DNA of 63,452 nucleotides, counting the filler, from Stramenopiles sp. TOSAG23-3 (taxonomy: Eukaryota), in NCBI GenBank assembly GCA_900128585.1. It is 4 parts of 4 records of this genome, joined end to end, with 100 filler letters (N's around TTAATTAATTAA, not from the genome) between each part and the next. Parts side by side here need not be neighbours in the genome. Positions count along the whole stretch, not along the records: positions 29,629 to 59,000 come from LT642238.1; 3 more parts are not named here. One strand, 5' to 3'. Both the position numbers and the translations under genes were made by a program. Shown here one piece after another: positions 34,498 to 40,587 of the stretch. Position 1 is the first letter of the stretch. Each line of letters opens with the position of its first letter. The notes beneath the pieces are model-generated. The model was given only the letters and a program-made list of their open reading frames with translations. It ran no database searches and had not been told where the DNA came from.

Positions 34498-37400
34498 ATG
34501 ATAAAAGGGGTGTCACGAACCTCGGCGCCTAATACTGTTTTGGATGTCTTGATTGCTGTACATACTTTCAAAGGTAGTTCAACTGATACTTTGGCGGTCC
34601 GTAGTGGAGAATACGTCGCTTTAGGATTTCAAGAAGAAGACGTTGACGGATGGATTAACGTAACCAATGTTACAGGTGTCTGTGGTTTTGTGCCCATTTC
34701 GTATGTAGAACATACCATGAACTTGCAGTATGATGTCCTGGCCAAAGTTAAGTTTGCTTTTCACGGAGATCCCGGAGAGAGTCAAATAACATTATCGCAG
34801 GATGAGTTGATCTTGGTGTCATCGTCGACAAAAAATTGTGAATGGATAGCAGCGAAAAGGTTCCAAGAGCACAGCTGTGAAGAAGGGTACGCTCCAAGGT
34901 CGTATATTGAAATTGTTGCCGACGAAGATAGTCCTGAAGGTAAACGCTGTTTTGCAAAGAAAATTGGTTTGTTGGGCGATCATGTTTTTGCTGCTGCCCC
35001 CGGTGCTGTTATTGAAGAACGTAGTGGGAAAGGGCACAATTTAACACCACTGCAAGCGAGACACAATGGTTTGAGGCTCCGAAAAAATCGCGCGAGAAGT
35101 GTTAGTGACATGAGAGGTAGTAAGAAACCAATGCATAGAGTAAACGGGGATGAAAGTACTTCTGCGCGAAAACAACAAAGGAAATATGGGCCTGACCTTT
35201 TTGACTCGTGTCACACGACTCCATTACGTCATAACAAAAGAACCCACCCAATGCCAGTACGTACCGCGTATATTTTTGGCGCTGAGAATATTTTCGTAGA
35301 ACGATTTAAAACGGCAAAAGAAGGATTGTCATTGCACGGGTGGTATACCCCGACCGAGAATATGAAAGTAGTAGTTGTAGTTGATCGTGAAAAACAAAAG
35401 GAAATGTTAGGAACGATAAAGTCGGTTAATATTGACGGGACGTATGATGTACAACTAAAGCAGACGATGATGGTTGGCAAAGCAAGTGTCAGTCTTTTGC
35501 AAAATGTTTCACGGCAAGACATTGTACCATCAAAATGGTCCAAGGTGAGCGGGAACACACCCCCTCAGTTTTTAACATGCATGCAAAATGGAGCGACAGG
35601 ATCGCAGCGATGTGTAGGCACGGTAAGAGATATTCCGTTCGTTGCATCCCTGGCAAGTAGTGCCGTTGCAAACGGGACATCACCACCAGAATTCGAGCTT
35701 GAACAAATCTTAAGCACATTTCATTACCTTCGATTCCGGGACTTAGATGTAATTTTTGAGGAAGGGGAAGAGGGTCATTCTATATACATAATTCTAGAAG
35801 GCCAAGTCGGAGTACTCTCAAATGGGCGAGAACTAGTGCGCCTAAAATCCGGAGAGTGGTTTGGGGAAATTGCAGTGTTACAATGGAATCGCAGAACTGC
35901 GACTTGCTTTTCAGTAGGAAATACCACGCTGCTCTGCATTAACAAACACGAATTTAGTGAAATAGCAAATGCTTTCAAGTGGTTGCGCCCTGCAATGTCC
36001 TCACTTGCCGCGCACCGAACTGGAAAACTGTTAAGCAGGGTTACATTTCTTGAGAATTTGTCTGAAGATGAATTGACTCTGCTTGGCGGGGCGTTTGTGT
36101 ATAAAGGGTACCCAGACAATTCTGTTATTTGTCGTGAAGGAGAGGTTGGCAATGAATTCTATATCATTGTCCATGGCACTTGTAGAATTACAATTACAAA
36201 TAGTGACGGCCAGCAAGAGTTTTTAAGGGAGTTAGAAGCTGGTTCATGGTTTGGGGAGGTTGCCTTAATTGAAAATTGTTATCGAACAGCAACCATATCT
36301 GCTTCAAGCCATGTTACTCTCCTCGTTTTAGCCGCAGAAAAGTTTGAGGCTTTCATAAAACGATCCTCGCAAAAATTCGTCGACAGTCTACGCACTAACA
36401 TCACGTCTACAGTTTCTCAGATGGTGACAAATATACCATTTTTTAAAAATGTAAGTAATAAAGAGCAACTCGCATCTTTATTTCACTTACAGCAGTTTGA
36501 GGAAGGCGATGTTGTATTTCGCGAGGGGACGAAGGGTGATGCTTTTTATATTTTACAAGATGGAGCATGCCGAGTTACGATAAACAATGAAGCCGATGTA
36601 GACATGCTGGTTGCACAGTTGCGGACAGGAGATTTCTTTGGTGAAGTGGCTCTTTTGAGTCAAAGCGTAAGAACGGCTACTATTACATGCAGCGAACGCA
36701 CGCGGCTTTTGGTGCTCCCATCCTCCTCGTTCAAGAGTTTCCTCGCCGTCGCCCCCGAGGTTAAACAGCATTTGCAACGGCACATGCAGCGTGTGTTGCA
36801 AGACGATAAAACAGCAGGTGTGGTAAAACATAGCAGGGATGGGCCCCTTGGTATCAAAGCTACGTTTGTAGATATTGAAATGTTAGGAGGACTAAAAGAA
36901 AGATCGTACATTCAGTTTGCTAATTCATTAGAATGGCGAGATGCTCCATTGTTGTATCGATTGCCCCGAGGTTTGAATTCCATGATTGATTCTCTCCCCA
37001 AGCGCATTTTGAAGCCGAACATTACTCGCTTTCTGAGTTCATATCTTGACGAAAGAATGTACTCCAAAATGACGGAAAAATTCAAGAATCAGACGATTAC
37101 CTTGAACATTTTTCTACCGAGACTGAAAGATAATTTTGAATTGCATTCACACGACTTAGAGAAAAACTATCATTTTTCACTTTCCTTGAGTATTCATTGT
37201 ACCATATTAAATGCAATGGAAGAGTTAGCGAGTGCAATGGAAGATACTTTGAGTACTAAAGGAGCAGTAAACCTTGCAGGTTATGGTTTCAAAGTTCTTG
37301 GGAAAAGCAACTATTTGATTGGCAATGGAAAAACACTGGGTATGTATCGTAGTGTACAAGAATGTCAACGATCAGAGAAACCATTACAATTGGTGCTAAT

Positions 37401-40400: not shown

Positions 40401-40587
40401 AATGATCCCAGCAGGAATGCCTGAGTTACAAGACGCTAAAGACATCGAATATATGGTAGAAATGCTTCAGCTAAACCTTAAAAGCAAAGATGCTACTGTT
40501 TTTATGAAAAAACAAATTGCCAGGTCGTTGGCAGATTTTTATAGACGAATCGATAATCTGTTGCATAATATAAAGACTGGATTATAA
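34498..40587 (+). CDS. Class I-type phosphatidylinositol 3-kinase with N-terminal SH3x2, Tudor-like, cNMP-binding x3, RBD-like, SH3, C2, helical and kinase domains
   Basis: Single ORF 34258-40587 (probable ATG 34498). Kinase: [54 protein letters not shown]. Helical: [11 protein letters not shown]. cNMP cassettes [45 protein letters not shown]. SH3: GW...[10 protein letters not shown]...[8 protein letters not shown], GW...GIVP. Confidence 0.9.
   Translation: [2029 protein letters not shown]

Follow-up and report, generated by a model that had tools for sequence, protein, structure and literature searches.

A candidate cyclic-nucleotide-gated, class I-like phosphoinositide 3-kinase encoded by a single open reading frame in a marine stramenopile

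Results

The window, meaning the whole stretch of 63,452 nucleotides that was analyzed, derives from Stramenopiles sp. TOSAG23-3. Its forward strand carries, at 34498..40587, a PI3K coding sequence with the layout SH3-SH3-X-CNB3-RBD-SH3-C2-helical-kinase, in which CNB denotes a cyclic-nucleotide-binding domain and RBD a Ras-binding domain. All features described below lie on this strand, and the limits of the gene rest on the open reading frame (ORF), the N-termini of homologues, and DNA and RNA contigs. An earlier note on this DNA had described the ORF as uninterrupted, and it is indeed a single frame of 2029 codons plus a stop, 6.1 kb in all, free of internal stops and frame changes. The stop-to-stop frame spans 34204-40587, with its first GTG at 34258 and its first ATG, an alternative in-frame start, at 34285. 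The start at 34498 is matched by the aligned N-termini of homologues P0003 and P0004.

Contigs from an independent metagenome (DNA run X2) cover 34384-36933, 36917-38575, 38548-38774, and 38905-40714, and the RBD-SH3-C2 zone falls within the second of these. RNA-library contigs from three metatranscriptome studies, two of them polyA, are collinear with the gene over its SH3, CNB, CNB-RBD junction, third SH3, and kinase portions; one of them, X18 record 18, bridges 36846-37005. No joint inside the ORF was found in the DNA or RNA contigs of X2 and the three metatranscriptomes, and this collinearity across independent sources makes a chimera unlikely; the earlier note had proposed read and transcript coverage across 36750-38300 as a check, with a chimeric join or two genes as the refuting outcome. 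Because DNA can occur in RNA libraries, these contigs are not proof of transcription. Two ENA contigs, possibly from the same source, carry a 2109-residue protein with 100% identity. The ORF is best explained as a real, intron-less, single nuclear gene of an uncultured marine flagellate, probably expressed as judged by the RNA-library contigs.

A Pfam profile search, run on the whole 2029-residue product (E<=0.1) and on pieces of it (E<=1), returned in order SH3, three cNMP_binding, PI3K_rbd, PI3K_C2, PI3Ka, and PI3_PI4_kinase. This is the domain order that the earlier note had read from the DNA, with coordinates that prove right within a few tens of bases. The first of its two N-terminal SH3 domains spans residues 19-71 (34552..34710), where SH3_9 matches residues 20-71 with 47.1 bits (cutoff 30) and SH3_2 scores 34 bits (cutoff 21.8). 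The second, at residues 80-138 (34735..34911), is recognized as another SH3_9/SH3_2 stretch when the N-terminal piece is searched, and it aligns with the SH3_1 match of P0003 (residues 86-136). Downstream, a conserved module of about 70 residues (278-349; 35329..35544) is 33-42% identical to P0003, P0004, and P0005, versus only 15-19% for the linker that precedes it. This segment had been labeled Tudor-like (~35335-35530), a label that found no support: its single family match, KOW6_SPT5, scores 19.6 bits, under the cutoff of 27; no PDB match is returned at E<=10; and hhalign finds no likeness to SH3 profiles (<=0.4%). The segment just before CNB1, residues 350-385 (35545..35652), is strongly conserved, with 61, 58, and 42% identity to P0003, P0004, and P0005, respectively, which equals the conservation of the helical domain.

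The three tandem CNB domains claimed for this protein are well supported by the Pfam family cNMP_binding (PF00027), which matches in three stretches with 207 bits (cutoff 27.5; E 3.1e-62), and by three canonical phosphate-binding cassettes (PBCs). CNB1 occupies residues 386-502 (35653..36003) and CNB3 residues 641-765 (36418..36792), both detected by Pfam and delimited with a purpose-built HMM. CNB2, at residues 511-636 (36028..36405), has its best Pfam stretch at residues 538-622 and was placed with the same HMM and by alignment to the CNB domains of Plasmodium PKG. Each domain contains one 15-residue PBC located by a cassette pattern: residues 455-469 (35860-35904), 585-599 (36250-36294), and 714-728 (36637-36681). 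All three carry Gly-Glu and Arg-Thr-Ala and line up with the cassettes of PKG. In the PDB, the region finds its top matches in a multi-CNB protein of Toxoplasma and in PKG from apicomplexans and mammals (E 3e-36 to 1e-22). Among the domains, the CNB domains rank next after the helical and kinase domains in conservation; they are 44-52% identical to those of P0003, versus 19-31% in the linkers, a difference that argues for selection on them. Arg-Thr-Ala alone does not tell whether cAMP or cGMP would be preferred.

The CNB domains are followed by a PI3K core. The RBD-like segment noted at ~37090-37400 is a Ras-binding domain (residues 857-969; 37066..37404): PI3K_rbd exceeds its cutoff of 22 bits both for the full-length protein (23.6) and for the piece (27.2), and a family profile aligns with 11 reference RBDs at an hhalign probability of 97.6% (E 4.4e-12; controls <=0.9%). 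A third SH3 domain had been proposed between the RBD and C2. Pfam run on this protein alone does not detect it, and phmmer against the PDB gives weak matches (E>1). Nevertheless, the segment (residues 1036-1098; 37603..37791) aligns with a Pfam-recognized SH3_9 of homologue P0008 (residues 1084-1136), its family profile matches that of the second SH3 domain with a probability of 96.2% (E 2.4e-9; four control segments <=1.5%), and G1053, V1059, W1072, G1086, and P1089 are invariant, which upholds the proposal. PI3K_C2 matches residues 1375-1441 (38620..38820) with 36.8-38.2 bits (cutoff 26.4), and the full C2 domain probably lies within residues ~1291-1470. The helical (PIK accessory) domain follows at residues 1499-1671 (38992..39510; PI3Ka, E 1.3e-46) and the lipid kinase domain at residues 1769-1978 (39802..40431; PI3_PI4_kinase, E 1.3e-60).

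Alignment to class IA, IB, and II references shows that the ATP-site lysine K1772, the catalytic loop D1884-R-H..N1889 (40147-40164), and the DFG motif are intact, in line with the earlier reading of the C2-helical-kinase region. The DFG and activation loop occupy residues 1902-1926 (D1902-F-G; 40201-40275). An activation loop with two basic boxes marks use of PI(4,5)P2. The polybasic loop described for this protein is present, and its 11 residues carry both boxes, like the class IA reference loops FKSKFGVKRER and FKEKFGFKRER; the first box is missing in the two class II references (AQMFGNIKRDR and AQMFGSFRRDR). Over a longer stretch of 19 residues, the loop matches the class IA references from Capsaspora and Agrilus. 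Judged by these motifs, the protein is predicted to be catalytically competent.

Class assignment is less straightforward. All of the best 60 of 122 PDB matches (E 5e-120 to 8e-111) belong to p110 chains of class I. No adaptor-binding domain, whether PI3K_p85B (IA) or PIK3CG_ABD (IB), was found by Pfam on the whole protein (E<=0.1) or on pieces (E<=1); these families do appear in references P0178, P0190, and P0258. A class II architecture was rejected on the absence of a PX-C2 tail: there is no PX match and no second C2, and the protein ends 51 residues past the Pfam kinase match, whereas class II reference P0264 has PX at residues 1425-1504 and C2 at residues 1545-1652. Class III (Vps34) enzymes have a C2-helical-kinase architecture lacking an RBD, and this architecture was rejected on the RBD seen by Pfam and hhalign. 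In a quick tree of 78 rows, the protein falls with classes IA and IB in a 96* clade that leaves class II outside. In a careful tree of 40 rows, the backbone is open; class II (100/100) and metazoan IA+IB (99/99) each exclude the protein, which sits in an 11-row clade with support of 85/98, not starred. In the helical+kinase tree this clade holds the Hondaea fermentalgiana protein P0007 and adjoins Triparma and Ectocarpus, a position that makes the source organism most likely a stramenopile close to the labyrinthulomycetes. Both trees were built without a Vps34 or other class III reference, so their bearing is on classes I and II. According to the accessible text of PMC4617754, the PI3Ks of bikonts constitute one class I/II type, and its grouping with class I lacks significance. 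The earlier designation as a class I-type PI3K is thus borne out by architecture and activation loop, and the trees exclude the protein from class II, but the adaptor-binding domain is absent and the careful tree, with its open backbone, does not support a grouping with class IA/IB that leaves class II out. By sequence, the protein is best described as a PI3K of the stramenopile "class I/II" clade with a class I-like architecture.

The architecture is not confined to this locus. Twenty-two other cluster representatives, including the Hondaea protein, join cNMP_binding to a PI3K core. They fall into two clades, one SH3-CNB and the other CNB-GAF or WW-CNB, the latter a separate 99* clade in the quick tree; a single origin of the CNB-GAF and SH3-CNB clades is not rejected (p-AU 0.124). 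SH3, CNB, and PI3K domains also occur together in seven further proteins recorded in NCBI, JGI, ENA, and Logan, and one such cluster contains several full-length copies of 2198-2203 residues. P0003 and P0004 have the full SH3-SH3-CNB3 layout and are 41-43% identical over 86% of the protein. In both, all three cassettes retain Gly-Glu and Arg-Thr/Ser-Ala, and P0005 keeps two of the same pattern. P0006, P0008, P0009, and P0010 contain no canonical PBC under the pattern used, despite Pfam cNMP_binding matches. Other N-terminal accretions on protist PI3Ks include PH, WW, C1, FYVE, RasGEF, DEP, and CH+RhoGEF. No description of a CNB-PI3K fusion, and no characterized member among P0003-P0010, was found in the literature searched. 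The surmise that no known class I enzyme has built-in cyclic-nucleotide sensors therefore stands for that literature but not for public databases, which already hold the architecture.

Discussion

The features at this locus are best explained, with a probability of roughly one half, by a CNB-gated class I-like PI3K that makes PIP3 and in which a regulatory module replaces the adaptor-binding domain. This module would comprise the two N-terminal SH3 domains, the small conserved module, and three PKG-like CNB domains, in the place of the N-terminal adaptor-binding domain of animal p110 enzymes. In the ligand-free state, the CNB tandem would keep the enzyme at low activity or in the cytosol. Binding of cAMP or cGMP at the intact cassettes would rearrange the tandem in the manner of PKG, PKA regulatory subunits, and Epac, releasing or repositioning the catalytic core. 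A Ras-family GTPase may act on the RBD, the SH3 domains may anchor the enzyme to partner proteins, and the expected output is 3-phosphorylation of PI(4,5)P2. From the intact motifs and the conservation we infer direct gating of PIP3 synthesis by cyclic nucleotides; ligand binding, the direction of regulation, and the lipid product are likewise predictions for this enzyme.

We consider it unlikely, although it deserves serious weight, that the CNB tandem is blind to cyclic nucleotides or binds another small ligand, serving in structure, dimerization, or docking, with control exerted only through Ras-RBD and SH3 scaffolding as in other protist PI3Ks with decorated N-termini. The four members of the same clade that retain cNMP_binding matches but have no canonical PBC under the pattern used indicate that the module can persist without obvious cyclic-nucleotide binding, and the many varied accretions on protist PI3Ks mean that accretion alone is no proof of allostery. 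In addition, the accessible text of PMC10959531 describes CNB domains of trypanosome PKA that bind nucleosides rather than cyclic nucleotides, so the ligand is not readable from the CNB fold alone. Against this reading, the complete cassette sets of the present protein, P0003, and P0004 and the two cassettes of P0005 have been kept, and the CNB domains outrank every non-catalytic part in conservation except the segment just before CNB1.

An enzyme that is functionally class II- or class III-like, making PI3P and/or PI(3,4)P2 on endomembranes, with the CNB domains linking cyclic nucleotides to trafficking or autophagy, appears improbable. The missing adaptor-binding domain would suit it, and both the careful tree and the accessible part of PMC4617754 leave class I versus class II open for this lineage. 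Several features speak against it: the activation loop, whose pair of basic boxes is found in the class IA references but not in the two class II references; the RBD, which class III lacks; the absence of a PX-C2 tail; and the class I identity of all of the best 60 of 122 PDB matches. Finally, an assembly or gene-model artefact fusing a CNB/SH3 gene with a PI3K gene is close to refuted, since N gaps elsewhere in the scaffold (near 29585 and 42510), the lack of a single X2 contig spanning the whole gene, and an overlap of just 17 bases between two X2 contigs (36917-36933) are set against a 6.1 kb frame without stops or shifts, identical domain order in the seven further proteins that combine SH3, CNB, and PI3K domains and come from four sources, DNA and RNA-library contigs that span RBD-SH3-C2 and bridge 36846-37005, and the identical protein on two ENA contigs, perhaps of one source.

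Returning to the CNB-gated PI3K, a broader proposal can be made tentatively, and we regard it as possible rather than probable: that an undescribed, widespread family of protist PI3Ks is gated in cis, with cAMP or cGMP on a PKG-like CNB tandem switching on PIP3 synthesis, and with sister CNB-GAF-PI3K proteins behaving likewise in other lineages. If true, such enzymes would connect two major second-messenger systems within one polypeptide. The lipid kinase described here, with three intact CNB domains on its own chain, may itself be under the direct control of cAMP or cGMP.

Among known systems, the class I p110 alpha, beta, delta, and gamma subunits share with this protein the RBD-C2-helical-kinase order, the lysine, DRH..N, and DFG motifs, and both basic boxes. 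They differ in that about 850 residues of SH3 domains, module, and three CNB domains stand here in place of their p85-binding or PIK3CG adaptor-binding domain; the protein also has an extra SH3 domain between the RBD and C2 and lies outside the metazoan IA/IB clade (99/99). PKG, whose chains score highest among the enzymes matched by the CNB region in the PDB, has tandem CNB domains whose cassettes contain Gly-Glu and Arg-Thr-Ala, a feature common to this protein, PKA regulatory subunits, and Epac; PKG likewise places sensor and catalytic domain on one chain. The output here is a lipid kinase rather than a Ser/Thr kinase or RapGEF, the CNB domains number three rather than two or four, and no autoinhibitory pseudosubstrate was recognized in the protein.

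Dictyostelium class I PI3Ks are, like the present protein, class I-like protist enzymes with long N-terminal extensions; they are activated in a Ras-dependent manner in the cAMP-driven chemotaxis pathway. There, cAMP acts from outside via a receptor and Ras, and these enzymes are not known to carry a CNB domain. The relatives P0003-P0010, including P0007, the "phosphatidylinositol 3-kinase, putative" of Hondaea fermentalgiana, belong to the same clade and have cNMP_binding N-terminal to RBD-C2-helical-kinase. P0007 differs in its length of 1514 residues, the absence of a Pfam SH3, and a single canonical PBC under the pattern used. The CNB-GAF/WW-CNB PI3Ks (e.g., P0021, P0260, P0293, and P0311) also combine cNMP_binding with C2-helical-kinase on one chain, but they have one CNB followed by GAF at the RBD site, no Pfam RBD, and often WW. 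In animals, PI3K-gamma acts as an A-kinase anchoring protein for PKA, as stated in the accessible text of PMC11585760, and also physically couples a class I PI3K to a CNB-bearing cAMP sensor. In mammals, the CNB domains belong to another polypeptide, the PKA regulatory subunit, and exert their effect through phosphorylation by PKA, whereas here they lie in cis without the involvement of a protein kinase; by this analogy, the fusion would be a covalent, Rosetta-stone counterpart of the PI3K-gamma/PKA complex.

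Results

The domain order that the earlier note had read from the 2029-residue product of the PI3K gene (window 34498-40587, plus strand), namely SH3, three cyclic-nucleotide-binding (CNB) domains, RBD, C2, helical, and kinase domains, is matched throughout by Pfam. SH3_9/SH3_2 covers aa 20-71, and a second SH3 stretch is found in the N-terminal piece. cNMP_binding (PF00027) matches three stretches (207 bits, E 3e-62), followed by PI3K_rbd at aa 857-969, PI3K_C2 at aa 1375-1441, PI3Ka at aa 1499-1671, and PI3_PI4_kinase (PF00454) at aa 1769-1978. The RBD match is a weak one (23.6 to 27.2 bits against a Pfam cutoff of 22), yet a family profile built from the six-member alignment A1 matches 11 strong reference RBDs at 97.6 % in hhalign (E 4.4e-12), with five control segments at 0.9 % or less. 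A third SH3, proposed between the RBD and C2 domains (aa ~1036-1098), is not detected by Pfam in this protein, and the single segment gives only E>1 in a phmmer search of the PDB. We nevertheless accept it as a divergent SH3. It aligns with the Pfam SH3_9 of the homologue P0008 (aa 1084-1136), with Gly, Val, Trp, Gly, and Pro invariant in the family alignment, and its profile matches that of the second SH3 at 96.2 % (E 2.4e-9), with four control segments at 1.5 % or less. Pfam finds no adaptor-binding domain (PI3K_p85B or PIK3CG_ABD) and no PX or second C2 domain in the protein, which ends 51 residues past the kinase match.

The segment at aa 278-349, previously called Tudor-like, is a conserved module, with 33-42 % identity to the homologues P0003, P0004, and P0005 versus 15-19 % in the preceding linker. 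The Tudor label itself is not supported: the sole family match, KOW6, lies below the cutoff, a phmmer search of the PDB returns 0 matches, and there is no likeness to the SH3 profiles. The 36 residues directly before the first CNB domain (window 35545-35652, aa 350-385) are 61 % identical to P0003, the level of the helical domain, and are a candidate regulatory or docking motif without family assignment.

All three CNB domains have the canonical phosphate-binding cassette, FGE-x-A and then R-T-A-T, at aa 455, 585, and 714, respectively, and conservation of the CNB module exceeds that of every linker. Its best solved relatives are a Toxoplasma multi-CNB protein (E 3e-36) and apicomplexan PKGs (E ~1e-30), with mammalian PKG I and PKA regulatory subunits also among them. 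The Arg-Thr-Ala form of the cassette is common to this protein and PKG but is also found in cAMP-preferring channels, and the choice between cAMP and cGMP is not readable from it. A motif alignment of the kinase domain shows the ATP-site Lys together with DRH..N and DFG, the latter two intact as the earlier note had stated. The activation loop aligns with those of the class IA references from Capsaspora (FKSKFGVKRER) and Agrilus (FKEKFGFKRER); the corresponding stretch is AQMFGNIKRDR in one of the two class II references and AQMFGSFRRDR in the other. Two basic boxes in this loop would mark the use of PI(4,5)P2. Canonical intramolecular SH3-proline clamps were considered and dropped, as the entire chain contains 0 PxxP motifs; for the same reason, its SH3 domains probably bind other proteins.

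The gene lies in a stop-to-stop open frame at window 34204-40587 (+), in which the first in-frame ATG is at 34285. The 80 codons upstream of 34498 are low-complexity, and P0003 and P0004 have ~20 residues between their start and the first SH3, the same spacing as in this protein when counted from 34498. The gene is therefore taken as 34498-40587, with 34285 as an alternative start.

A chimeric join is very unlikely. An exact copy of the protein occurs on two ENA contigs, which may be from the same source, and SH3, cNMP_binding, and the PI3K core occur together in seven further proteins (P0003-P0006 and P0008-P0010; NCBI, JGI, ENA, Logan), one cluster of which comprises several full-length copies of 2198-2203 aa from three sources. 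It is present, whole or in part, in 20 of the 24 listed sequencing runs, and 14 contain at least half of the words of this stretch; six are RNA by their records, and one may itself be the source. Contigs were aligned to the locus from four runs, the independent metagenome DNA run X2 and the RNA-library runs X15, X17, and X18. The X2 contigs span 34384-36933, 36917-38575, 38548-38774, and 38905-40714. The RNA-library runs, from three studies, two of them polyA, provide 24 listed contigs, all collinear, that cover the SH3 domains, the CNB domains, the third SH3 (37486-37901), and the kinase end, and the junction between the CNB and RBD regions lies under contigs 36846-37005, 37075-37323, and 37237-37469. 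None of the contigs from the four runs has a joint inside the open frame, and the aligned contigs give no sign of introns. X15, X17, and X18 leave 34000-34230 uncovered and are discontinuous over the open frame, where contig cover says nothing on absence; nor can contigs prove transcription or a single transcript. At 37842, an X17 polyA-RNA contig (depth 7.9) carries G>A plus an extra A in the run AAAAGGAAAAAAAG, shifting the frame; X2 lacks it, and the one-base insertion is probably a homopolymer error.

The window consists of eukaryotic nuclear DNA carrying long open frames free of introns. Matches for the remaining ORFs are a calpain-domain giant protein, TPR, zf-CW, a proteasomal AAA ATPase, a KAT11-bromodomain acetyltransferase, tektin, cytosolic carboxypeptidase, adaptin, and Myb; the tektin and cytosolic carboxypeptidase ORFs suggest that the source organism is a flagellate. 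An Rfam and tRNA scan of the window gives 0 matches. The calpain ORF (218-7768, +; 2516 aa) has as its sole Pfam match a calpain protease domain in its C-terminal part (aa 2069-2372), leaving ~2000 N-terminal residues without a family. Upstream of the PI3K gene is a gene-poor, AT-rich gap of 4 kb (30100-34200; GC 0.33 at 32-34 kb) that holds a stop-to-stop ORF at 31247-31597 (+) with a YLDD-type motif; it resembles a reverse-transcriptase fragment and may be what is left of a decayed retroelement. Runs of N (scaffold gaps) at ~29585-29630 and ~42507-42624 flank the locus at a distance, with 0 inside the gene. Just downstream, at 40857-40924, lies a pair of a ~34-nt AT-rich element, TTAAAT(T)AACAGCCA...TTTTGTTTT, a second pair of which occurs near 61.4 kb (61429-61538). 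The word depth of X2 rises from ~7 to ~4400 across 40699-40900, with many loose ends at 40832-40872, which means that something in this stretch is highly repeated or common to different organisms.

Trees were built on the helical and kinase domains, with no class III (Vps34) reference. In a quick, PI4K-rooted tree (78 rows x 535 columns), two class II references and Acytostelium fall outside a starred clade of 71 rows (96) that holds class IA, class IB, and all protist rows. The protein sits in a starred 11-row clade (99) with the homologues P0003-P0010, including the Hondaea fermentalgiana protein P0007 ('phosphatidylinositol 3-kinase, putative'), and with P0075 and P0077; this clade is sister (87) to one containing Triparma and Ectocarpus. 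Rows with CNB-GAF and WW-CNB architectures form a separate, starred 15-row clade (99). In a careful tree of 40 rows (ultrafast bootstrap/SH-aLRT), the protein, P0003, and P0004 group at 100/100 and a 5-row clade at 100/99; the 11-row clade receives 85/98, not starred, and its union with the Triparma-Ectocarpus clade 81/91. Class II (100/100) and class IA plus IB (99/99) are each recovered, with the protein outside both and the backbone open. An AU test did not reject a single clade uniting the 26 rows of both CNB-bearing clades, a group named after the tree was seen (lnL difference 32.75, p 0.124), so the data support no claim of either a single fusion event or two.

The assignment to class I thus stands on architecture and activation loop but is not carried by phylogeny. 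The careful-tree placement agrees with an account of PI3K evolution (PMC4617754), in which the PI3Ks of bikonts form one class I/II type that does not group significantly with class I. The class III reading is ruled out by the RBD and the PDB ranking only, the trees lacking Vps34: the best 60 of 122 PDB matches are all class I. P0052 was rejected as a Vps34 seed, its own PDB matches being class I.

The architecture recurs. In a word-based search, 16 of 58 matches combine PF00027 with PF00454, 15 without the window's own protein, all 15 confirmed by hmmscan. An exhaustive search with aa 830-2029 gave 10540 matches at E<=1e-3; among the best 150 considered, 127 were new, 69 of these were at least 1140 aa long, and 68 of the 69 were scanned (P0321 left out). 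cNMP_binding is present in seven of the 68, five of them also with GAF. CNB and the PI3K core thus occur together in at least 22 non-self representatives, 15 word-based and 7 from the best 150 of 10540. A search with aa 640-1130 gave no new family members, its 14 matches being the window's own protein and CNB proteins of other kinds; this word-based search missed even P0003 and P0004, so the method overlooks members.

Two designs are seen. The first, SH3-CNB(1 to 4)-RBD-(SH3)-C2-helical-kinase, includes Hondaea P0007, which has no Pfam SH3. The second, (WW)-CNB-(GAF)-C2-helical-kinase, has no Pfam RBD. GAF is another small-molecule or cNMP sensor fold. In P0021, P0026, P0029, P0236, P0260, P0288, P0293, and P0311, all of the second design, it occupies the usual place of the RBD. 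Other long PI3Ks in the search set carry PH, WW, C1, FYVE, RasGEF, DEP, RA, or CH with RhoGEF, indicating that N-terminal accretion is common and CNB one of several modules; with GAF and CNB added, these accretions place protist PI3Ks far from the animal model. CNB also occurs in fusions with RhoGEF, TPR-cyclase, channels, and RGS, in unnamed metagenome and assembly proteins. P0322 and P0323 (2659 and 2745 aa; Logan) combine cNMP_binding with RhoGEF, match the CNB region at E ~1e-96, and represent another cNMP-to-small-GTPase fusion.

Discussion

Judged from its sequence, the enzyme is a class I-like PI3K with a built-in putative cyclic-nucleotide sensor, one of a recurrent family already in databases for which we found no description. 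We propose that the CNB tandem is a working cNMP sensor that would exert allosteric control over the lipid kinase or over its membrane recruitment, while Ras would act at the RBD and the SH3 domains would provide anchorage; we put the probability of this reading at about 0.5. It is favored by the conservation of the CNB module, the three intact cassettes, and the replacement of the adaptor-binding domain. The main rival is that the module no longer binds cyclic nucleotides or binds another ligand. It draws on relatives that lack canonical cassettes and on the nucleoside-binding CNBs of trypanosomes described in PMC10959531; the cassettes of this protein itself are intact. Direct gating by cNMP, as the earlier note had suggested, is plausible.

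Few signaling enzymes have been studied as much as class I PI3Ks, and, to our knowledge, all characterized members receive their inputs via separate adaptor subunits, Ras, or G-beta-gamma. Three intact sensors on the catalytic chain would, if the reading is true, constitute a new input logic in which cNMP acts directly on 3-phosphoinositide synthesis, and the enzyme would lend itself naturally as a template for a PI3K tool gated by a small molecule. Hondaea fermentalgiana, a named species, is represented in the family, which would make the idea bench-testable if cultures are available. As to novelty, the architecture is already in databases, but no published description was found: full-text literature searches yielded no PI3K with CNB domains. 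Term look-ups in the main text of two studies of PI3K evolution (PMC4617754, PMC3024228), a survey of the CNB superfamily (PMC2246266), and PMC9138222 likewise turned up no CNB-PI3K fusion, although their supplementary tables may list such architectures.

In the Rosetta-stone sense, the fusion supports the notion of PI3K and cAMP sensors acting in concert. The nearest functional parallel that we found in print is PI3K-gamma, described in PMC11585760 as an AKAP that tethers PKA; by analogy, the present fusion would be a cis version of that tethering. PKG and Epac likewise place sensor and enzyme on one chain, the same layout as in this PI3K.
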